Below, one piece after another: positions 48,644 to 64,000 of a stretch of 64,000 bases of DNA (position 1 is the stretch's first letter; every line of letters begins with the position of its first letter). The translations under genes were made by a program, and so were the position numbers. The stretch is from assembly GCA_000165425.1 (NCBI GenBank), contig CT868274.1:62001-126000 (forward strand), read 5' to 3'. The DNA comes from Paramecium tetraurelia. Taxonomy: Eukaryota. The notes beneath the pieces were generated by a model. It made no database searches, was not told the DNA's origin, and saw only the letters and a list, made by a program, of their open reading frames with translations.

Positions 48644-49802
48644 ATGTCATCCATTTTAAACAGCATTGCTAAAATGAGATATAAAACAAAAGTATCAATA
48701 TGATTTGAGTGTTGTTAGGCCGTATTTTCAGGAGTGACAGACGTTGTAGTTGTAGATCAGGGGGAGGAGAAGTATGCATCAACTCCTTTCAATGTGAAGT
48801 TTGGTAAATTGAAATTCTTAAATGCTGGAGAGGAATTGGTTATTGAGAGTATATTATAAATCCGATTGCATAGCATTGAATATAAAAGAGAAATCAACCA
48901 TCAAATAGATGAGTTTGATAAAATTAGTAATTTTCATAAACGGAGAGAAAAGGGATGACATCCAATTTTACTTGGATGACGATTAGATAGGCCATTTTGC
49001 ATATGACTAGAAGGCAGATATAGAGGAACTTAAATAGAAATATTTGGAACAGACAAAACAAAATATGAATCTACAGCAATAACAGGAATCTAAATTGATT
49101 CCATAAAATAAATTCTTAGTTTTGTCTAGAGTGCCTACTTCAAAAACCATTCAAAGTTTAAAGTTAAAGCATGGATTAAACACAATTACTTATGAAGTGG
49201 AGTGCAAGAGGTTGGGTTTGTAACATATTGAATGTCAATTGTTTATGATAAAATAAAACCAGAAGATTTTCATAAGTGACATCGATGGAACCATTACTAA
49301 ATCTCCAACAAAAGGTATGATTCTATCTACATTCGGAAGAGATTACACATAAGATCACATATGTGAGTTTTACAATAGGCTCACTTAGAGGAATTATCTT
49401 ATTTTATACATGTCTGCTCGATCGATGGTATAATACGAAAGTACCAAAGAATATCTGCTCAGATAATAACAATAGGGTATCTAATTACCTCCAGGCCCAC
49501 TGTTTTTGTCTCCCTAAGAACTATTAGAGGCTTTTACTATAGAGGTTATCAAGAAACAGACTGACATTCTTAAGTCACAAATGTTAAACGATTTGGTCTT
49601 CACCATAGGAGTAACTGGGACAATTTAAGGTGGAATGGGAGATAGATTGAACGATATTCAAGCATACAAGATGGCCAATATCGAATATGAAAGGATATTA
49701 CTGATAAATAAGAAGGGGGAGATAGTTCGAGTGAATAATGAAATGAAAGAAGAAAAATTCACTATAAAAGAAATTATTTAAAAGATGGATTAAATTTTCT
49801 GA
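48644..49802 (+). CDS. Lipin/Pah1-like phosphatidate phosphatase (N-LIP + LNS2), compact form
   Basis: FSGVTDVVVV..STPFNVKFGK (N-LIP); ISDIDGTITKS catalytic motif; LYMSAR; LPPGPLFLSP; intron 48692-48718. Confidence 0.92.
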
Positions 49803-49833
49803 ATTTATTTAAATAATTACACAATTAATTAAA

Positions 49834-51519
49834 ATGTCTGCTGTGGGTATTCGTGGTGAAAGAGATCAAGGACAAGATGTTCGTACAAGTAATGTAACTG
49901 CCGTCATGGCCATTGCAAATGTAGTCAAAACTAGTCTTGGACCATAAGGATTGGATAAGATGTTAGTAGATGAAATTGGAGATGTTGTAATCACAAATGA
50001 TGGAGCAACTATTCTCAAATAATTGGAAGTTGAGCATCCAGCTGCTAAAGTCATTGTCGAGTTGAGTTAATTGTAAGACAAGGAAGTCGGTGATGGTACT
50101 ACATCCGTTGTTGTATTGGCTGCTGAATTGCTTAAGCGAGCTAATGAATTAATTAAAATTAAGGTGCATCCTACCACCATTATATCCGGTTACAAATTAG
50201 CTGCCAGATAGGCTGTCAAATATATCCAATCTCATTTAGTGCACAAAATCACTGAAGATGACACTGAGATATTGATCAATGCAGCCAAAACTTCCATGAA
50301 TAGCAAAGTTATTGGTCCAGAAAGTCACATCTTTGCTAAATTAGCAGTCGATGCAGTCAGACTAGTCAAAACTTAAGGTGCAATCTCAGGAAAACCTAAA
50401 TATCCCATCCAATCTATTAATATTGTTAAAAGTCATGGACAATCCTCCAATCAATCTGAATTGGTCAAAGGATACGTTATCCAATTACAAAGAGCTTCAT
50501 AATAAATGGTAACCAAAGTTAAGAATGCCAAAGTTGCTTGTTTAGATATCAATTTGAACAAATTCAAAATGTAGATGGGAGTTTAAATTTTGGTTGATGA
50601 TCCAAACAATCTTGAGAAGATCAGAAAGAAGGAAATGGATGTTTTGAAAGAAAGAATCTAATTATTATTGTCAGCAGGAGCCAACGTGATCCTAACATCA
50701 AAAGGAATGGATGATTTAGCTAATAAATACTTGGTTGAGGCGGGAGCTATTGGATTAAGAAGAGTCCCAAAGGATCATCTAAGGAGAATTGCTAAAGCAA
50801 CAGGTGCAAAGGTTATTACTACCTTCGCAAACGAAGAAACTGGAGAGTCCTTTGATGCATCCAGTTTAGGAGAAGCTGAAGTATGATTGTATAATAACAA
50901 TAGGAAGTTTACGAAGAAGCCATAGGAGACAATGATTACATATTTTTCAAGGGAATGAAAAGAGAATAATCAGCAAGTATCATCCTCAGAGGTGCAAATG
51001 AATTGATGACTGATGAAATAGAGAGATCTATACATGATTCATTGTGTGTTGTTAAAAGAACCTTGGAATCTGGTTCAGTCGTAGCTGGAGGTGGAGCTGT
51101 CGAAATGGCCTTAAGCATTTATTTGGATGATTATTCGAGAACTCTTGACACAACTGAACAAATTGCTGTTGCCGAATTCGCTGAAGCTTTGACTGCTATT
51201 CCAAAGATATTGGCTACCAATGCTGCCAAAGATTCAATTGATTTGATCAGCAAATTGAGAGTTTTACATAGCAAATCTTAATAACTCTAAGTGGATGAGA
51301 AGGGATTTAAGTACAGTGGACTAGATCTGATTAAAGGAGAGGTTAGACACAATTTGAGACACGGAGTTCTTGAACCAACAGTGAGCAAAGTGAAATCATT
51401 GAAGTAAAATACAAACATATATTGTTAGGTTTGCAACAGAGGCTGCTATTACAATATTGAGAATAGATGACATGATTAAATTAGAACCAAAGAAGGAGTA
51501 AATGCCAGGTAGACATTGA
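49834..51519 (+). CDS. CCT1: T-complex protein 1 subunit alpha
   Basis: [63 protein letters not shown]. Confidence 0.97.
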
Positions 51520-51724
51520 GTTATGATAAGTATAATAAATAATTATATGCATAATATTATTAATGAAAGTCCATTCAAGGATGTTAATAAATACTTACTC
51601 ATTTTGGTGCTTATTTCTAGTTTACTTGAAAATATTTAATTAACCTAGAATCAACTCTAAAATTAATAGAGCTTTATTAATCAAAATAAGGAATCCAACA
51701 AATCGTTTAATTATTTTAATAAGA

Positions 51725-52490
51725 ATGAATCGAAGAATTATCACAGAAGTTGGAGATTCTAATCGCAAAGATCTCAAAGATGAGTGTAATGCAAATGAGT
51801 ATAATTTCATCTCGAATAAACGTTATCTACACTTGAAATCCAATGCAAGTGAATCTGCGGTTGAATTGAAAAGACAAAGTAGAATTAATCCAATGGCATT
51901 TCAATAAGAGAATGTTTCCATAGATTAAACGAAGTTATACTCTATGGCGAAACTGTCCCTTCAAGGATAAACTGAATAGCTGAAGAATTGCTAATGGTAG
52001 GATCTCAATCTACAAAAAAAGAGTTCTTGCTTATTCAAGAATTTAGACAAATTAGAACATAAAATTTTTGTTAATCAAGGTATTTATAATAATTCTAAAA
52101 GATTGAGATTAATTTACAAAGAGAAGAAGTTAGTTGCTGAAATAACTAATGTAAATAAAACAAAGTGATAGGAGTAAGTCGAATTATAACTTGTAGATTA
52201 AAGATGGTGAGAAAATTGAAACGATCCTTCAAGTGCGATCGATAATGAATGCTGAAGGGAGGTTGGAATAATAGTAGAGAAGATTTTAGATACAAAATCA
52301 ATCTGTCTTAAGAATGAGATAAAGATTGGCTAGTTGTTTGGAACAGAGTCAAGATAGAAGCTTGAGTAGATTGAATATGAATTTCTCCGCTTTGACGATA
52401 CAGAGAAAAGAGCTGATAAATAAAAATAGCTCTTAATTAAGAATAAGAATGTAATAAAATTGTTGTAACAAAGAAATAAATACTAATTGA
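51725..52490 (+). CDS. Hypothetical protein, tandem paralog A
   Basis: MNRRIITEVGD...SIMNAEGRL; one intron near 52080 with uncertain acceptor. Confidence 0.7.
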
Positions 52491-52514
52491 TTAATTATAT
52501 ATATTATATATATA

Positions 52515-53366
52515 ATGAATAGACTATTGATTACGGAATTAGGAGATACAATGAGAACAGAAATGAAAAGAGATTTAAATAAGACTATTAAGTCGAACAG
52601 AACTATACTGAAAACCTCATTTCCAGAAATAAAGAATAATTTTTGTAGTTCTGCTCTTCTTACCGAGATCGACAAAACTTAGAACCCACTCTACTAAAAA
52701 AGTCTTTCTGATTAGGCACTTCTAAATCTGTCTAAGGTTGCCAATCTTTCTTTGTTTGGGCCTAAAAATAGACAGAGTTTGGAAAATCACTTAAGAGATG
52801 ATCTATAAATTAAGAAGTAGAAGGATTATTTAAATTTATGTTTGGACAAGTAGGTTGATAGAATTCTTGATGATAAGAGTATTAGAATTGAAATAATATT
52901 AGATTTGATGAGCAAAAGGAAGAGACAGTTACTGAATGAGTTGAAGAAGTTGGAAGCCAGAACAAAGTTGAAACATTTTCATCACATCCCAACGGAGTAG
53001 TCTTAATTTAGTTCTCTGATTGAGGACAACGACAGAGGGATGAAGTTGATGTCGATAGTAAATGCTGAAGGTAAGTTATTATAATTGAAGAGAAGATACG
53101 AAAAGCAGTAATTGGTGGATTTGAAAACGAAACAATAAGTGAAACTGAATTATTTCAACTTCAAAGAAAATCAGATTAGGAACATCGAAGCTTTGAAAAT
53201 AATGGAGCATAAGGATATGGAGAGTGATGTTAAGGATATTTTTATGAACAAAGATTTGTCCGAAATCAGATTCAGTGAAAGATTGAATGAGAAACATGTA
53301 AAAGAGACTGAACAAATTTGGAAGTAGCATCACTTTCCTCAACATAGGAAATGGCTATCAAATTGA
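52515..53366 (+). CDS. Hypothetical protein, tandem paralog B
   Basis: MNRLLITELGD...SIVNAEGKL; open code-6 frame to TGA 53364-53366. Confidence 0.75.
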
Positions 53367-53397
53367 TTAAATATATATTAAAATTAAATTGATAAAA

Positions 53398-55412
53398 ATG
53401 ACAAGGGCGATTAATCTAAAATTATAAGATAAGTTGATTCTCATAGAAATGGCAAATGAAGCTACTCTGAGTGATCTTTACAAAAGAGTAATAATTCAAT
53501 TTAAGACATAGATCAAAGAGCATCCTCTCACTCCAAATCCAAATTAACTGATTGGACTCAAAACTGTATCAGGAGCCTTGACTTTAGATTATATTCTCTC
53601 AAGACCTGAAGATAGGAGTATAAAATAATAATGATTAGGTTTGTTACAATTAAATAAATTGAAGTAGAATGAGTGGTTGGTAGGAATTTATAAGTAATAA
53701 ACAGGATAGTTAAGTTTGAAAGATTTTGTATTTGAAAAATGCATAGGAAAAGGAGGAACCTCAGAAGTATATTTGATAAGACATAAAGGAAATGCAAGAC
53801 TGTACGCACTCAAAATGATAAAAAAGCATTACATTACAGATTGCAGACGTTTAGAATAGGTATTGAGAGAAAAGAAAATATTATCCAATGTATTAAATTA
53901 AAGTCCATTTATTGTACCATTGTATGCAACATTTGCCACTCGAGAACACTTGTGCTTCTTGATGGAATACAGTCCAGGAGGGGAGATGTTCTTCCACCTC
54001 TAAAATTATAGATTTACAGAGGAAGAAGCCAAGAAGTACTTTTGTGAAGTGATTTGCACATTGGAAGAGTTACATAAACATAAAGTGCTCTATCGAGATT
54101 TAAAGGTATTATTACAATTGATTATAATAGCCAGAGAATATCTTAATTGATATTCGAGGTCACATTTAATTGACAGATTTCGGTCTATCAAAGTTGGATT
54201 TGATGAATGAAGATGTTACACACAGTTTTTGTGGTTCTCCTGAGTACATGCCTCCAGAAATAGTCAGGTATATCTATTGACTATTCTAGTCGTTAAGGAT
54301 ATTCATACCCAGCAGACTTTTACACCTTGGGTTGTCTCTTACATGAGTTGTTATTAGGATTACCACCACATTATTCTTAAAACACTGAAGAGATCTTTTA
54401 GAAGATAATTAATGAGGAGTTGGAGTTACCAGATGACCTTACAGAAGAAGTAACTGAACTATTAATAGATCTATTGGAAAAGGATGTCAATAAGCGAATC
54501 AAGGACTTCAAAGTGTTGAAAAAGTATCAATGGTTAAGTGATGTGAATTGGGAAATTATCAAAAACAAACAATTAGAAATGCCTATTGAAATAGATATAT
54601 ATGAAACTCATATTCATGGAGAATTCTTAAAGGTGGATGTTGCTGAATTTAATTAAAAAAACGAAACTGGTGATTTGAAACCTTAAGATGATTTGTTCGA
54701 GTTCTTTCATTACATTAATCCTATGTATTAGGATTAATTCTTGTTAGAATCAAAATAATAGAATGTCAAAAACAGAGCTTCAAGTGATATGATAATTGAG
54801 AAGAAATAAAAATTAGGACTAAATGACAGATAGTCGAATGTCAATCCAACTCAATTAAAGAAGTGCAATTCTATCAAATAATCTTTGAAGTCTGCTAGTT
54901 CTCCAAGAATAAGTAATTAATTATTTAGTACTGGCCATCATAGTACTCAAAATTCGCCCAAGAAACAGCTACAACTCAATTTATAAGATATTGACAACCA
55001 ATTAAACATGAAAACGCCAAAATAACCCAAATCCCTAGCTGGAACAACTCCAACAGCTGCAACTTTGGCACTGCTGAGAAAGAGTTTCTAGACTCTATTG
55101 AAGAAGGCTCCATAATTAAGGAATCAAGATAATAATCCCACTTTAAGAACTCTGTTATCAGAAAGGTCTTTAATGGATAGGAATTATGTTAATCATATTA
55201 ATTATAATTAGATTTAAAAAATATTACAATTATAACATAGCAGTCCCACCAATAGAGAATTGTCATAGAGGCCACCTCAATAATTGTAAAAAAGAATTTC
55301 AAGCACTTCCACCCATCTTAAATCCTAGTTATCATAGTTATCACTCTTTACTTTATCTTCATAAATTACTTAAAGGGGCAGTACCTCACATAGACCAAAA
55401 CTCAAATAATGA
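53398..55412 (+). CDS. AGC-group Ser/Thr protein kinase
   Basis: IGKGGTSEV, YALK, YRDLKPENIL, LTDFGLSK, SFCGSPEYMPPE; S/Q-rich tail; several introns. Confidence 0.93.
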
Positions 55413-55810
55413 TAATATTATTATATATATTTAAATATAAATTTATCCTTTAAATTCATCTGATTTGTCCATCCTTACATTTTAAGTCTCGTTTTGATAT
55501 TATTTATTTATTTCAAGTCACTTATCAATCACTATTACTATGATATCTTATATTAATTTCTATCTGCTTGAAACAAAGAAACATCAAGAAAGCAATTACA
55601 ATGTTTATTTGATCTATCAATTTGATGAATCAATCAGACATAGATATAAATTTTAAAATTTCATTTTAAAAGTAGTTGAATACATCAATAAATATCAGTT
55701 ATAATATGTTATTGAAATATTTATATTAATTAGTAACAACTTTAATAATATATAAATTATTCAAACTTTTTTTAATTAAATTTATAATAAAAAATACTTA
55801 AATCACAACA

Positions 55811-56774
55811 ATGATTGATGTGCAGCCTTCCTAGCAGAATTAATATTTAATTAAATCTTTACTCAAAAATTAAATCTTTACCTTAGATAAATAGGATTCG
55901 TTAAAGTATTAATAAATTACAGCCCAATAATGTAATCAGCAATTTCATTGGACTATAGTAAGTGTGGACTAACTCTAAAATTTTACTTAGAAATACTCCT
56001 TAAGATTTGGAGAGTTTATTTAAATTACTGCAAGCAGACCCTAAAACTAAAATCAACCTTTGAGCAAGGTACCTCTATTGATCCAATAGCCTGATAATTC
56101 AATTATTTCAGAGTAAACTTTTACAAGCCTTAATGATAATTTAGTTAGAAAACAACCATGTGTCCTTTAAAGGGCTGATGACAATTTTTATTTAACAATA
56201 GAGAAAGATAAAATTATATTCATAGAACTCCCTAATCAAGGAAGCTATTTCTAAATTATACCCCTAAGTGAAAATGAATTAGAAATAAATAGACCTATAA
56301 TTTAATTCCAATATGAATATGAAATCAGGAATTACTATACTGGATATTCTCTAAATATTAAATAAGAAAATAGCATTCCCAACCATCTAAAATTAAGCGC
56401 AATAAGAAGTAATAAACAAAGTGAGAAATGGCAGATAATATAAGATCAAAACTTCCATAACTAATTTTAAATTCTAAATTTAAGACATCAGATTTATATC
56501 AATACGAAAGACGACAATACAAAGTAATTTTCAGTGAACCCACAAAATGTTAATTGGGAATTTTAAAGTACAAGATTAACCATATAAATTAGCAATTGGC
56601 GGTCAAAAATTTTCTTATGGTGTTCCTTTTATTATTCAAAATTCCTCCACTAAATACTTTTTAACAATGGGTGTATTTAACTTAAAAAATATTATAAATT
56701 TTTAATAAGTAGTTAAATAAAGTCAAAAACTAAAGCCAACATCATTATGGATAATTTTTTAACATTAAATTTGA
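55811..56774 (+). CDS. Hypothetical protein, possible beta-trefoil (MIR/ricin-B-like) repeats
   Basis: Recurring [YF]xIxN..T..[SF]L and Wx[IF] patterns (YEIRNYYTGYSL, EKWQII, FIIQNSSTKYFL, SLWII); last intron uncertain. Confidence 0.6.
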
Positions 56775-57088
56775 TTTTTTATTTATTTATATTAACACAA
56801 CTAAGTGGAAATTCTTTTGAATATAAATAAAGTAAGTAGTAAGTCTTGGATTATTATAAAAGTTCTTAACAGAGATAAATAGTATTTTTTTTCGGAAAAA
56901 TACTACTTAACTAAAGTAAGCACAGTATAAGGCTATTTCTAAAAGTTCTAAGAATAATACTAAAGGGTTGTCAAATTGATATCTTTGTAAAGAATAGATA
57001 ACTTATAAAAAATAAAAGAATTGCTAAACCATCCTTATTTCATTTATCAAATATTATTTATTGTTTATAATTTATATTTTATAATTAA

Positions 57089-59013
57089 ATGAAGCAAATT
57101 AAAAGCTAATTTAACTATCAACTAATAGGAAGGATTCCAAAACAACTGAGTATAGCTAGCTAATTTATTATTAAGGTAGTTCATACAAAAAAATGAATAA
57201 TCGAATACTTGCATATTAAAATAAAATATAAGTCACAAAAGATGATAATCAATTTGACTTTAGCATAATTACTCCAGGCTATTTAAAATGCAACAAATCA
57301 TAGTATATGTTTAATTGGAAAATCAACTTTTTTGAAAGCCAACTTTGTTAATTTTCTAAAGATGAATTTTATTAGATTTATCTATACAATTGTTTCCTCT
57401 TGGGGGATTGTTACAAAGCTAATAGTCTATCATATATGCAATAACAATTTAGATCATTTTAGTCATATTTTGATAAAAGGAGTGGAAACAGATATAATAT
57501 GCTTTTATAAGGAGAAAACATGAAATAATTCAATGAATTTAAACTATAAAATTCATCTCAAAATGAGTTCACAGATTTTAATCGAATTTATGTTAATAAA
57601 AGAAATCCATTTGTATAATTTTCAGTATATGATATGGTAAACAGCAATGAAAAGGCAATATCATATTTTTAGAAATTGATTCAATAAAAAGCATTTAAAA
57701 ACATAGATGAAGCCTTATAATATTATGGAGTGACTCTAAAGGAAATTGAAGAATTGAATGTTCATGAATTCTTACATCTAGAAAAACTAGTTCCTGGGAA
57801 TATACAAACATATAGGTAGAATTACCAGAATTTCTAAGAATACATAGCCTTTTGTGCATACACATTACATATCAATTAATTCCATAGAAATGTACCAAGT
57901 ATGGCATTCAGCACTAATGAATGCGAATAGTGTAACTCAAACAATCCATCAGAGTATTGTACATCTCTTAAACCTATTCAACCTTTAAAGTAACCTCTCT
58001 TAATACCTATTTAATAATTGTAAGAATACCCTCTAAATTATAAAACATATGACATTATTTGCATTCTCTATAATTCATTAATTTGCTAATTAAATATTTG
58101 GAGTCATCAAGACTCTGTTGAAAGCATACTAAATTACTAAGTGCCTGAAGAAGCCATAGTAACTTCATCATTCAATTTCAAAAGAAACTATGAAAATTTG
58201 GAAGTATTAGGCGATTCTGTTTTGAAATATGTCATAACCGCGGATATCTTTAAACAATACAAATTGTTAGACGAGGGAGAAATGACATCCTTACGTAGCC
58301 GCTTAATAATGAATACCTTTTTGGCCTAATTATTTGAGTAACTAGGTTTAGAACAATTTATAATAAATTAGGATTTGCATTTCAAATAAATTAAAAATCC
58401 ATTAGTCAATGATATAATTTCAAGTGAAAATAAACAGCTGCAAATCAGCCAGAAAGCTGATATTTATGAAGCAATAATTGGTGGAGTGTTTGAAACTACT
58501 CAAAGTCTCTATGAATATATTACTATTTTAAGAAGAACAAACTTTCCTATATCTATCTATAAAGACATCCTCTTTGATTATGAGCCAATTACAGCTCAAA
58601 TCGAGCAAATAGATATCAGAGACTATAAATTCAATAATCCTCAATTATACGAAATAGCTATTAATCCATAATATTATGATAGATTGGAATTTTTAGGGGA
58701 TGCTGCTATTGAATTACTTGTCATTTCTTATGCTTTTAGAGTGGCAAGGGAAAAACAATAGAAAAATCCTAATTGGAGCTTGAATCCAGGATTACTATCG
58801 ACATGGAAGTAGTATTTATTAGGAAATAAGTTTATGGGAGAACAAACTATTAAAATGGGATTAAAACCTCAAGTTAACGAGATACCAAAATTATATGGAG
58901 ATATTTTTTAAAGTGTTGCAGCTGCCATTCTTCTTGATAGTGGATGGAGAGGTTTAAATTAAGTGTATGGAAGCCTATATAAGAAATATTTGGATGAAAT
59001 TATTGAGTTGTGA
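57089..59013 (+). CDS. DCL: Dicer-like protein (tandem RNase IIIa/IIIb; no helicase or dsRBD seen), ~632 aa
   Basis: IIIa NYENLEVLGDSVLK...KADIYEAIIGG; IIIb YDRLEFLGDAAI...PKLYGDIFQSVAAAILLDSG; 26-nt intron near 57150; the paralog number cannot be assigned from sequence alone. Confidence 0.92.
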
Positions 59014-59033
59014 TATATTATTAAACTAATTAT

Positions 59034-59510
59034 ATGAATAAAAAAAATTTAGGATGGGACATTGAAGAACACTAATACTTAGATAGTTTAATACCTAGCA
59101 ATTTACCAAGAATCGAAAAAAGACATTAAGAGAGCAAGAACCATAGAATTAAGTCAATTTTAGATTCGAAAATTATTATCTGTTCTTCTTCTGTTTAACC
59201 TAACCAAAATAAGAAATCAATGTAAATTTGTACTTAAACTACTCAAACTGCATTTTAAAATACACTTACTTAAAGTTTTTATAGTCCCATGGCTTTAACA
59301 AATTACCAAGCTTTAAGATATCCTCCAATATAAGATGTTGTTAATAAGTCATCTAAAAAATCATAAGGACCATTGAAAAGAAGGAAATATAGATGCAGTA
59401 TAATTAATTTGAGTCAGCCATCAATTTAAAGTCCATAAGCAAATAATAAGCTGTACAATATCAATTAATATTTATAATAAAAATACTCATGTATTAACTA
59501 TTTTGATTGA
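59034..59510 (+). CDS. Hypothetical protein (158 aa)
   Basis: Uninterrupted code-6 ORF MNKKNLGWDIEEHQYL...INYFD-TGA. Confidence 0.68.
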
Positions 59511-60075: not shown

Positions 60076-62164
60076 ATGTCAGCACTTGAGATAGCACGCA
60101 AGAAAATATCATTTGATGTAAATAAGCTGTCCCACTTCATTTGGGAAGGAGAGGAGAGATTCAAGAGATTCATGGCATTTTAGAAGCTATGCAGTTCTGA
60201 TCCTCTTCTTCGTAATAATCCTAAGGACATTGGAATAGGAAGAGCCGAAACATATGAACTATATGCAAGGAAAATGAAGAAGTTGTTGGAGGTGGCTGAC
60301 TTGCGTGATATCAAAGAATTCGCAACCTTGATCTATCCAGAGGCTGTAAGATATTGATATTATGTTGAATAGTTGGTGTCATCATTGAATTATGAAATGT
60401 TCATGCCCACAATAATGAATTTGGGAACAGAAGAATAAGTGAAGCTGTTTTATGAGCCAGCATCAAGATGGGAGATCTTGGGTTGTTATTCATAGACAGA
60501 ATTAGCACATGGTTCAGATATAAATAGAATCGAAACAACAGCCACATATGATAAATAAACAAAATCTTTCATAATTAACACTCCCTCATTGAAAGCCACA
60601 AAATGGTGGGGAAGTGACATGGGCATAACAGCTACTCATGTCGTAACCTAAGCCTAATTGTATATAGACGGTAAGAGATGCGGAGTATAGAATTTTGTTG
60701 TCTAAATCAGAGATGTGAAAACCCATCTAAACACTTCCAGGCATTTTGGTCGGTGATATTGGTGCTAAGTTTGGATACAATGCAAAAGATAATGGATATT
60801 TGAGATTTGATAATGTTAGAATTCCCAAAGTCAATATGTTAAGCAAATATGTGAATGTCTCAGATGATGGACAATTCACTAAAACTGGAGATGACAAAGT
60901 ATGGCATGCCACCATGTAATTGATGAGATAACATTTCTTGGATTCAGTATGGAAATGTCTAGGAATTGGTCTCACTATTGTTATTAGATATTCATTACAA
61001 AGAAAACAATTCAAAGATTCCTTAGGGTAAGAAATTCCCATCTTTGATTACCAACTTCAATAACACAAATTGATTCCTTTGATTGCTGAAATGTATGGAT
61101 GCATGTTAGGAAGTAAGAAGGTCTTTGCTATGGCACATGACAATGTTGCTAGAATCAAATAAAAGAATGATTTCTCTAAAATGATGGTATATCTTAAATT
61201 CATCTTAGGAAGTTCATGTTGTCTTAAGTGCTTCTAAAGCATATTATACATGGAACTGCTTCTTTGCCTTAGAAAAGGTTAGATAATGTGCTGGTGGACA
61301 TGGTTATTCCTATTACTCTGGAATCCCACCTCTTATTACTGAGATGAGTCCCTGTGTCGTGGCTGAAGGTGATAATACAGTCTTATCTTTGTCTGTGGGT
61401 AAGGTCTTGTTGATGTATCTCAACAAAGGTATCACAATATTTTCTATTGTTAGCCATGTAATCAGGAAAGGCTCCCAACACCACTTGTGATTATTTGGAA
61501 GACATTTTCAATTATTTGACTGAACTCAAATAACCATTGGTCTCCAAAGAGTGCACCAGAGACCTCAATAAGGTTTTGGCTGCTTTAAGATACAATGTTG
61601 CTTTCAATGTTGCTAATGCAGGATAAAAGTTACAAACTCTCATGGGTGATAAGGGATTAACATTTAAGGAATCCACAGACAAGCACTTAGGCATTCTCTT
61701 ATAAGAAATTGCTCACACACAATCTAATTATTGGACTTATAGAACCTTCCTTGAAGAAGTCAATGCTTTAACTGATCCAAATATTAAGACTGTCCTCACT
61801 CAATTATGCTTATTGTATGGTCTTAACAAGATCTTGGAATAATAAGGATAATTGTTTGAGTATGGTGTCTTAACTGGTCCTCACATTCTGTATGGATCAG
61901 AGAAACCAGAGATGAACTTATTTCAAATTTGAAAGACAACGCATTGGGATTAGTTGAGGTATACTTATTATCTCTATTTTATAGGCCATTGCTTATGATG
62001 ATAATAGTGTGAGATCAGCCATTGGAGATTCCTAGGGTAATCCATATGAGAAATTATATCATTGGGCCAAAGACCTCAACCCATTAAATGAACCAGAGTT
62101 CCATGAATAAGTTTTCAAGACAATTAAGACAATCAGAACTGCATCTCCACATGCTAAGTTATGA
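60076..62164 (+). CDS. Peroxisomal acyl-CoA oxidase; two apparent frameshifts
   Basis: GCYSQTELAHGSD, ATKWWG, VGDIGAKFGYNAKDNG, CAGGHGYS, AEGDNTVL; C-terminal PTS1 AKL; indels at ~60727 and ~61891. Confidence 0.92.
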
Positions 62165-62284
62165 TTAAGATTAACAAATAATTAGATTCATTATTTATGT
62201 TCTTTTTCATTATAGAGTATTTATGATGAAAGTAAGGGAAGGACCATCAATGAATGCTTTAATATTTATTATTATTAATTAAAA

Positions 62285-64000
62285 ATGGAAGGATATTTGA
62301 AAAAATGGACTAACCTTTTTTCAAGATGGCAAGATCGTTATTTCATTCTGAATGAAGAAGTTCTTGTTTATTGCGATTCTCAAGGAGGCTAGATTAAAGG
62401 ATAGGTGCATTTAAAAGTGGCGGCTTTGATTTTAGTGCCTGAAGACCCTTTAAGAATAATTATTAATACTGGAACGACAGAAATTCATTTGAGAGCAAGC
62501 AATATAAATGAGAAGATCGATTGGATTAATGCATTGAAATAGGCATAGGACAAATGTTTGAGTCGTTAAAATGAAATAAAGTTTGAATAAAAGATACAAG
62601 AATTGCTTACTGATGTTTGGTAAACTGGAGCTATATGTAAGATAGATAAATTATTGTAGTTGATGAAACTTTGAGTATGTTGATTCCTAAATTGGAAAAG
62701 AACTCGCAAATTAAAGAAATGGCTGACAGATTAGAAAGCATAGGGAAAAATCTAAAAACGAAAATCACCTTATGTGCTCAAATTGTTGAAGAGGAAAAAC
62801 AAAAGCTATCAAATATAGATAATGGAACTGTGTATGAGAGTTTTATTCATCAAAATTCAGCATAATCAGTATTACGAGAGGAGTCATTGAATCACTAGCA
62901 TCATTAATCACACGGTCAATAATAATTAATGAGTGTATCTGAAATTGGTTAGCAAATAAGAGAGCATTAGCCTATAAAATATGTACTTAAAGAATTTGTT
63001 ATATTAGTTTTTAGAATAATCTCATCAATAATCCTGCGTTTCAGAAGAGTAAATTTACAAATCAGTCTAAAAGAGATAGATTACCTTATCGAAAGGACCC
63101 TAATGAAAAGATAAATGTTTGGTTATTGTGTAAGGAATTGATTGGAAAGGATTTAGGAAGATTTTCAGTGCCAAGTAATGGATTCATATTTACAAATAGT
63201 TATTTTGAATGAGCCATTGTCGATGTTATAAAGATTAGCAGAATAAATGGAATACTCTGAATCGTTGGAAGAGGCTGATAAGATTCAAGGAGATAGTGCA
63301 TTAAGAATGTGTTATATTATGGGTTTTGGTGTCTCACCCTATTCAGCAAATATAGGAAGAACAAAGAAACCTTTCAATCCTATTCTAGGAGAAACCTATG
63401 AAATTTAGACTCAGAATTGTAGGTTTATTAGTGAATAGGTTTCGCATCATCCTCCTATATCTGCAGGGTATGCAGAATCCAAAGCTTTTTAGTTTTGGGC
63501 GCACACAGATGTCCAAACAAAATTTAATGGCTTATGTTTCTAAGTGAATCCTGTTGGATTATTTAACGTCATTTTGAAATCATCAAATGATCATTATTAA
63601 TTTAATAGGTGCACAACAAAGGTTCAGAACATTTTATGGGGGTAATAATATTTGGATCATATGGGACAAATGAAATTTGTAAATCTGACGACTGGTGATA
63701 ATGGAGTGTTGGAGTTAATTGAAAAATCAGGAAAATCAGAGTCTGAGATGAGAGGGTATGTAAAAGATAAAAATGGAAATGAGAAATATAAGTTAAAAGG
63801 TTTTTGGAATGATCGTCTTATAGCTTATGATTCTTAAAGAGAGATCATAGTGTGGAAGAGACATCAATTACCTTAGGATTCAGATTGGTATTATAATTTT
63901 ACTGAATTCGCCATGTAACTTAATCATTTGACAATTGATATGATAAAAGTAATAAATATATGTCTAAATGACTTAGGATTTGCCATGTACTGATTGCAGA
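62285..64000 (+). CDS. Oxysterol-binding protein with N-terminal PH domain (3' truncated by window end)
   Basis: MEGYLKKWTN..WQDRYFIL (PH); NEPLSMLQRLAE, KPFNPILGETYE, EQVSHHPP signature. Confidence 0.95.

Follow-up and report, generated by a model that had tools for sequence, protein, structure and literature searches.

A glutamine in place of the last catalytic glutamate of RNase IIIb in Paramecium tetraurelia Dcl1

A Dicer-like gene on the plus strand of a 64,000-nucleotide stretch of Paramecium tetraurelia DNA (contig CT868274.1, positions 62,001 to 126,000 of the forward strand, assembly GCA_000165425.1; this whole stretch is referred to as the window, and its own numbering is used throughout) encodes two RNase III domains, the first (IIIa) with a full set of catalytic residues and the second (IIIb) with a glutamine at the position of the last catalytic glutamate. 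The locus raises the question of whether such a protein nicks only one strand of double-stranded RNA (dsRNA), serves as a non-catalytic binder or regulator, or is decaying, these being the three options offered by an earlier reading of the sequence alone. The evidence set out below makes it probable that the IIIb cut was lost through a recent GAA-to-TAA change, in a duplicate whose expression is weak and which is probably losing its function.

Gene identity and catalytic residues

The gene is DCL1. Under the ciliate code (code 6, in which TAA and TAG encode glutamine and TGA is the sole stop) the plus strand contains a single open frame of 606 codons from 57193 to 59013, while the ATG at 57089 sits in a different frame that meets a TGA at 57194-57196. 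Removal of a 26-nt intron joins the two frames (57089-57149 to 57176-59013) into a 633-codon frame specifying 632 amino acids and a TGA stop, and reproduces the database protein P0003 letter for letter. RNA depth is 0 in the bin 57142-57212 and no RNA read spans the intron (57150-57175). A homology search gave eight proteins at E ≤ 0.001 among 3630 candidates, with a 100% match from P. tetraurelia at the top, and a cluster look-up identifies P0003 as GSPATT00012932001 of scaffold_36 (accessions CAK77447.1, XP_001444844.1 and CAI39054.1). The N- and C-termini and the GDIFQS motif of P0003 agree with those of Dcl1Pt (GSPATP00012932001) in the available supplementary alignment of Lepère et al. 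(2009; NAR 37:903, PMC2647294; Suppl. Fig. S2), where Dcl2Pt reads GDIFES. This agreement and the identity with P0003 establish the gene as DCL1 of P. tetraurelia.

A Pfam search produced two stretches of Ribonuclease_3 (PF00636; E 5e-31) and otherwise only chance-level matches, and Dicers, Drosha and DCL proteins in the PDB match both regions, so that the chain contains two RNase III domains in tandem. Pfam and PDB profile searches found no helicase, DUF283/Dicer dimerisation domain, PAZ domain or dsRBD, and the protein is thus not a canonical Dicer. The two RNase III domains are predicted to pack as an intramolecular pseudo-dimer, with Q599 in the metal site of IIIb.

Domain IIIa (motifs LEVLGD and ADIYEA) contains all four acidic residues: E363 (GAA, 58201-58203), D367 (GAT, 58213-58215), D449 (GAT, 58459-58461) and E452 (GAA, 58468-58470). 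In IIIb (LEFLGD and GDIFQS) the corresponding residues are E525 (GAA, 58687-58689), D529 (GAT, 58699-58701), D596 (GAT, 58900-58902) and Q599 (TAA, 58909-58911), and the domain is therefore one acid short. By these residues, Dcl1 belongs by descent to the Dicer-like family and stands outside its catalytically complete members. Alignment to solved structures places Q599 opposite the glutamate of GDIFES in human Dicer IIIb (2eb1), of GDVFES in Drosophila Dcr-1, of GDVVES in Arabidopsis DCL3 and of GDVFEA in Aquifex RNase III (1i4s), and opposite the glutamine of GDVFQA in the engineered Aquifex E110Q (1yz9). In human Dicer numbering the position would be residue 1813, by an alignment to 5zak (query 79-111 versus chain 1800-1831) that assumes a single gap after the site, as in 2eb1; in E. 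coli RNase III it is presumably E117. The sequence-only reading was thus correct in its description of the site, namely an intact IIIa, a IIIb that reads GDIFQS with TAA as glutamine, the assignment of this glutamine to the fourth catalytic carboxylate and its alignment with GDIFES of human Dicer.

A glutamine at this position is rare. In a wider sample of 153 proteins, composed of 149 representatives from a HMMER search of 1.84 billion proteins and four of the sequences studied here, 131 of 250 RNase III domain matches have a residue in the Q599 column: 126 Glu, two Gln and one each of Arg, Lys and Ala. One of the two glutamines is that of Dcl1, and the other lies in a domain in which the first two catalytic residues are changed as well.

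The substitution itself is not new. Q599 is printed in the alignment of Lepère et al. (2009); the observation stands, but it has been known since then. The available text and supplementary figure of that paper confine the missing catalytic residue of Dcl1 to the second domain and describe DCL1 and DCL2 as close paralogs that arose in the last whole-genome duplication. As far as the available text goes, DCL1 is not up-regulated in autogamy (microarray 10.0 versus 9.9, not significant), giving a constitutive signal, transgene silencing was not relieved by DCL1 dsRNA, and the gene showed no involvement in sexual reproduction (PMC2647294). Hoehener et al. (2018) describe Dcl1 as a presumably inactive ohnolog of Dcl2 with no known function, `supposed to be catalytically inactive', and attribute the production of scan RNAs (scnRNAs) and of internal eliminated sequence RNAs (iesRNAs) to Dcl2, Dcl3 and Dcl5. 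A role in making these RNAs, which the sequence-only reading had evoked from ciliate Dcl proteins at large, therefore belongs to other genes. The three options of that reading would fit the `presumably inactive' of the literature. In the literature on Paramecium Dicer-like genes, no later functional work on Dcl1 and no published cleavage assay of it were found.

Distribution among relatives and rate of change

Protein databases (cluster look-up and homology search) yielded 12 further Dcl1/2-family proteins, giving a set of 13 sequences from seven species: Dcl1 and Dcl2 of P. tetraurelia, two proteins each from P. octaurelia, P. biaurelia, P. primaurelia, P. pentaurelia and P. sonneborni, and one from P. 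caudatum. Glutamate occupies the IIIb position in all 12 relatives, and the remaining seven catalytic residues, including the four of IIIa, are common to all 13 sequences. Conservation of the glutamine in orthologs, proposed earlier as a check, is thus contradicted, and Gln599 is a private feature of P. tetraurelia among the sequences compared. The P. tetraurelia Dcl2 (GSPATT00008494001) resembles Dcl1 in length (632 amino acids each), sequence (84% identity, 530/631, no gaps) and architecture, with the same N-terminal region and two RNase III domains, but differs in reading GDIFES, with all eight catalytic residues, where Dcl1 reads GDIFQS. In the available part of the published record it also differs in being up-regulated in early autogamy and in cutting dsRNA to 25-nt products in vitro, whereas Dcl1 is constitutive. 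The 11 proteins from other species (P0011, P0014, P0004, P0016, P0012, P0013, P0005, P0017, P0006, P0007 and P0008) share the architecture of Dcl1 at 60-89% full-length identity and differ from it in having the IIIb glutamate in 11 of 11 cases.

In the maximum-likelihood (ML) tree Dcl1 forms a clade with the P. octaurelia protein P0011 (support 100/100), which reads GDVFES. Because this sister sequence retains glutamate, the change either followed the split of the two species or represents an allele carried by the stock that was sequenced. Five of the ten inner forks of the tree have support under 80. The supported pairs are tetraurelia/octaurelia, primaurelia/pentaurelia and sonneborni. A clean division into Dcl1 and Dcl2 orthologs over all species was rejected, the deeper forks having support of 20/72 to 54/92, and the more distant proteins are therefore referred to here as members of the Dcl1/2 family.

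P0011 (654 amino acids) begins with 46 residues that are unrelated to the MKQI...SSSYKK start of the other 12 proteins, and its first exon or intron is probably mis-annotated. Residues 1-26 were omitted from the substitution counts for this reason.

Protein evolution is faster in the Dcl1 pair than in the Dcl2 pair. The tetraurelia and octaurelia sequences are 91.5% identical in the Dcl1 pair and 96.7% identical in the Dcl2 pair (603 columns), and the terminal branches of the ML tree are 0.062 (P. tetraurelia) and 0.066 (P. octaurelia) for Dcl1 and 0.020 and 0.012 for the Dcl2 pair. A Tajima test of P. tetraurelia Dcl1 against Dcl2, with P. caudatum as the outgroup, gives 32 versus 18 changes (p = 0.048). 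Polarised terminal changes at columns invariant in the other 11 sequences were taken as private hits; these number 11 of 37 polarised changes in P. tetraurelia Dcl1, four of 26 in P. octaurelia copy A, two of 19 in P. tetraurelia Dcl2 and one of 13 in P. octaurelia copy B. A metagenome scan for the coding DNA of relatives, aimed at the ratio of nonsynonymous to synonymous substitution (dN/dS), gave 44 pattern matches, of which none was confirmed.

Five of the 11 private changes (S353F, L364V, V374I, V376A and E383K) fall within 58171-58263 (residues 353-383), around the signature motif of IIIa. This segment was picked post hoc and three of the five changes are conservative.

Consequences for cleavage and the fate of the gene

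DCL1 is the ohnolog, from the last whole-genome duplication, of the 25-nt scnRNA maker DCL2, and its product is a minimal Dicer-like protein in which some 330 N-terminal residues precede the two RNase III domains. On the model of the homologous Dicer and Drosha, these domains are expected to pair within the chain, each cutting one strand of the dsRNA. The fourth RNase III carboxylate helps to hold the catalytic metal ions, and E. coli E117Q and Drosha Glu-to-Gln mutants lose cleavage. The simplest path to Q599 is a single G-to-T change from GAA to TAA, which would have exchanged this metal-binding carboxylate of IIIb for glutamine once the lineages of P. tetraurelia and P. octaurelia had separated. 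It is likely that Dcl1 has lost the IIIb cut, in which case it could not release small-RNA duplexes on its own.

Engineered and disease-associated changes at RNase III metal-binding residues point in this direction. The E110Q mutant of Aquifex aeolicus RNase III (1YZ9) carries the same Glu-to-Gln change (GDVFQA versus GDIFQS) and, in the available part of the source (PMC8943300), was used to keep the enzyme on dsRNA without cleavage for RNA-bound structures. The Aquifex enzyme differs from Dcl1 in that it is bacterial and pairs two identical chains, each with a single RNase III domain and a dsRBD, so that both sites carry the designed mutation, while in Dcl1 one of two sites is changed and the change is natural. 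Human DICER1 IIIb hotspot mutations affect metal-binding residues, among them E1813, the homologous glutamate of GDIFES; such mutations are reported to eliminate cleavage of the 5' arm, with processing of the other strand continuing. They arise somatically in tumours and concern a full-length Dicer that also has helicase, PAZ and dsRBD domains, whereas the change in Dcl1 is germline-fixed in a minimal Dicer-like protein. Together with the glutamine in the DCL4 structure 9kby, the two systems suggest that Dcl1 would retain dsRNA binding with a IIIb that no longer cuts its strand, and would at most nick through the intact IIIa.

Three alternatives would remove or reinterpret the substitution itself. 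That TAA is an assembly or base-calling error for a true GAA deserves hardly any credence: the contigs of DNA runs X3 and X15 agree with the window at every letter of 57000-58851, and the glutamine occurs in two protein entries of GenBank and in the alignment published in 2009, which possibly share one source. It is true that these contigs end at 58850-58852, before the TAA codon, leaving 58853-59017 as the sole part of the gene with no contig in either run, and that the best of the 19 runs from several studies that contain at least half of the sampled words of the stretch hold 0.96 of them and not 1.00; a gap of this kind proves nothing, as the record filter omits records. It is also improbable that the glutamine is an allele of the sequenced laboratory stock, arising as a polymorphism or a mutation fixed in culture, with glutamate in other P. 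tetraurelia isolates, although a single assembly underlies all the P. tetraurelia records found (one contig for P0003), the closest species has glutamate, the change involves a single base and nothing speaks directly against it. An ordinary, active Dcl1, in which IIIb goes on cutting despite the glutamine, perhaps at a lower rate or with a different metal ion, is very doubtful. Glutamine is of the same size as glutamate and could bind metal through its carbonyl oxygen, and the three other carboxylates of IIIb are intact, but the same replacement is the standard means of inactivation for structures, as in Aquifex E110Q (1yz9) and in the DCL4 chain 9kby, which reads GNLVQS, and the prevalence of glutamate in the wider sample (126 of 131 positions) also speaks against it.

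The main rival accepts the loss of the cut and holds that Dcl1 still works but has taken on a different role, being kept by selection either as a strand-specific nickase, with IIIa cutting and IIIb holding the RNA, or as a non-cutting dsRNA binder that partners or regulates Dcl2, Dcl3 or other RNA interference (RNAi) factors. Several of the points in favour of this view also count against loss of function. The 33 residues past Q599 are conserved. The 633-codon frame is intact and is transcribed, features that a young pseudogene would show too. The share of changes at invariant columns (11/37) lies below the neutral share (328/606; binomial p = 0.004), which implies that purifying selection still acts or acted over most of the branch. 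The excess of such changes is itself marginal (11/37 versus a pooled 7/58, Fisher p = 0.058; versus P. octaurelia copy A alone, 4/26, p = 0.24), the rate of Dcl1 does not significantly exceed that of its glutamate-bearing sister in P. octaurelia (25 versus 16, p = 0.16; 25 versus 15, p = 0.11), and the signal of decay is weak. In the available part of Jenkins et al. (2021; PMC8059543), 21 of 22 copies of Dcl1/2 are kept across 11 aurelia species, from which it can be argued that a second copy is generally useful. The fully intact IIIa is in keeping with a changed job, and the clustering of five private changes near the IIIa motif could reflect co-adaptation, subject to the post hoc choice of segment. 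Ciliates also keep other RNase III paralogs judged inactive by sequence (Paramecium Dcr2 and Dcr3 and Tetrahymena Dcr1, in the available text of Lepère et al., 2009); these have all four catalytic residues mutated in both domains and possess helicase and DUF283, whereas Dcl1 has lost one of eight. The label `inactive' given to Dcl1 appears, moreover, to be based solely on homology. Against a changed job stand the lack of a phenotype in the published screens, to the extent that these are described in the available source, and the glutamate of all 12 relatives; with the change limited to one species, any new role would be very young. This explanation is considered unlikely. Its most specific form, a natural one-strand nickase or cleavage-dead dsRNA clamp kept by selection as a vegetative modulator or competitor of Dicer-like processing and unique to P. 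tetraurelia, is more doubtful still.

Early loss of function in a redundant duplicate, whose open frame persists with low-level transcription, would be the more probable fate of DCL1, and is judged so because of the faster protein evolution, the extra hits at conserved positions and the lack of a knock-down phenotype. Wholesale decay of the P. tetraurelia copy was considered separately and set aside, as the marginal rate tests do not carry it.

Transcription is indicated by RNA run X23, an oligo-dT library in which 22 reads among 19.16 million records fall on the stretch. In every one the first mate lies on the minus strand, in keeping with sense transcription at a low level provided that the library was made by the common stranded protocol. 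RNA read depth is 0.56 in the bin that contains the TAA codon, and run X20 gave one contig of 166 nt that is identical to the window. A depth of 2.98 is found at 59059-59100, just past the DCL1 stop, which exceeds any depth within the gene and may represent the 3' untranslated region or a neighbouring transcript. The contigs of two independent DNA runs break at about 57372, 57600 and 58851, with short 31-nt pieces at higher depth, and these breaks may mark sequence that is shared with the paralog DCL2 and divides the assembly graph.

Locus features and significance

The features of the locus and its neighbours are collected in Table 1. The neighbours at 48813-55409 and 60076-63990 are ordinary housekeeping genes and include no RNAi-related gene. 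Long open frames at 58420-59436 (minus strand, 338 amino acids, antisense to DCL1) and at 55625-57196 (plus strand, 523 amino acids, through the upstream intergenic region) match no Pfam family; they are not evidence of genes, because such frames arise easily in AT-rich DNA with TGA as the sole stop.

Table 1. Coordinates of DCL1, its parts and the flanking genes, in window numbering
Feature	Position	Strand	Basis or location
DCL1 gene (GSPATT00012932001), ATG to TGA	57089-59013	+	Spliced translation identical to P0003
Exon 1, 61 nt, codons 1-20 and the first base of codon 21	57089-57149	+	Gene model
Intron, 26 nt, GTA...AAG (GT..AG)	57150-57175	+	Deduced from the protein; restores the frame
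Exon 2	57176-59013	+	Gene model
N-terminal region, approximately residues 21-359, no sequence-detectable family	57176-58191	+	Pfam, PDB profile and atlas searches
RNase IIIa domain, complete set E363, D367, D449, E452	58192-58494	+	Best PF00636 stretch, P0001 residues 334-434
RNase IIIb domain, E525, D529, D596 but Q599	58666-59004	+	Residues 11-123 of a 125-aa query align to the Aquifex RNase III endonuclease domain
TAA codon, Gln599 at the site of the fourth catalytic carboxylate (Glu) of IIIb	58909-58911	+	Codon table and structure alignments
Lipin/LNS2 phosphatase	48813-49799		Upstream
TCP-1/CCT chaperonin subunit	49747-50883		Upstream
Protein kinase, C-terminal part	54207-55409		Upstream
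Acyl-CoA oxidase, several exons	60076-61339		Downstream
Oxysterol-binding protein	63142-63990		Downstream

In the PDB profile search the matches begin only at residue 333, with none in the N-terminal part, and an atlas search with the N-terminal 335 amino acids gave a top feature score of 0.79, which is under the lead threshold. A `highly diverged PAZ domain' has been ascribed to Paramecium Dcl proteins (Hoehener et al., 2018). The region contains a His/Cys cluster (H252, H257, C270, C273 and C282; H-x4-H ... C-x2-C-x8-C) at 57868-57960 (residues 252-282) that is invariant in all 13 Dcl1/2-family sequences, and Dcl3 and Dcl4 show a similar C-x2-C ... C pattern in the available supplementary alignment of Lepère et al. 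(2009). This cluster may be a zinc-binding site.

With the substitution in print since 2009, its rediscovery changes little for the field. An inactive-looking IIIb is confined, among the 13 sequences, to P. tetraurelia, which is the model species of all the functional work. This restriction was not found stated in the literature on Paramecium Dicer-like genes, which is no proof of its being unpublished. The ciliate code contributes an unusual side effect, in that a GAA-to-TAA change, which truncates a protein in most organisms, here produces the very Glu-to-Gln replacement with which laboratories switch off RNase III domains. As all 12 relatives have a complete catalytic set, the statement that Dcl1 is inactive should not be transferred to other aurelia species, in which the function of Dcl1 may be easier to find. 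If the protein should prove to be a nickase or a clamp, that statement would hold for one species, and the ancestral job of Dcl1 would be open to study in P. octaurelia or other sibling species.

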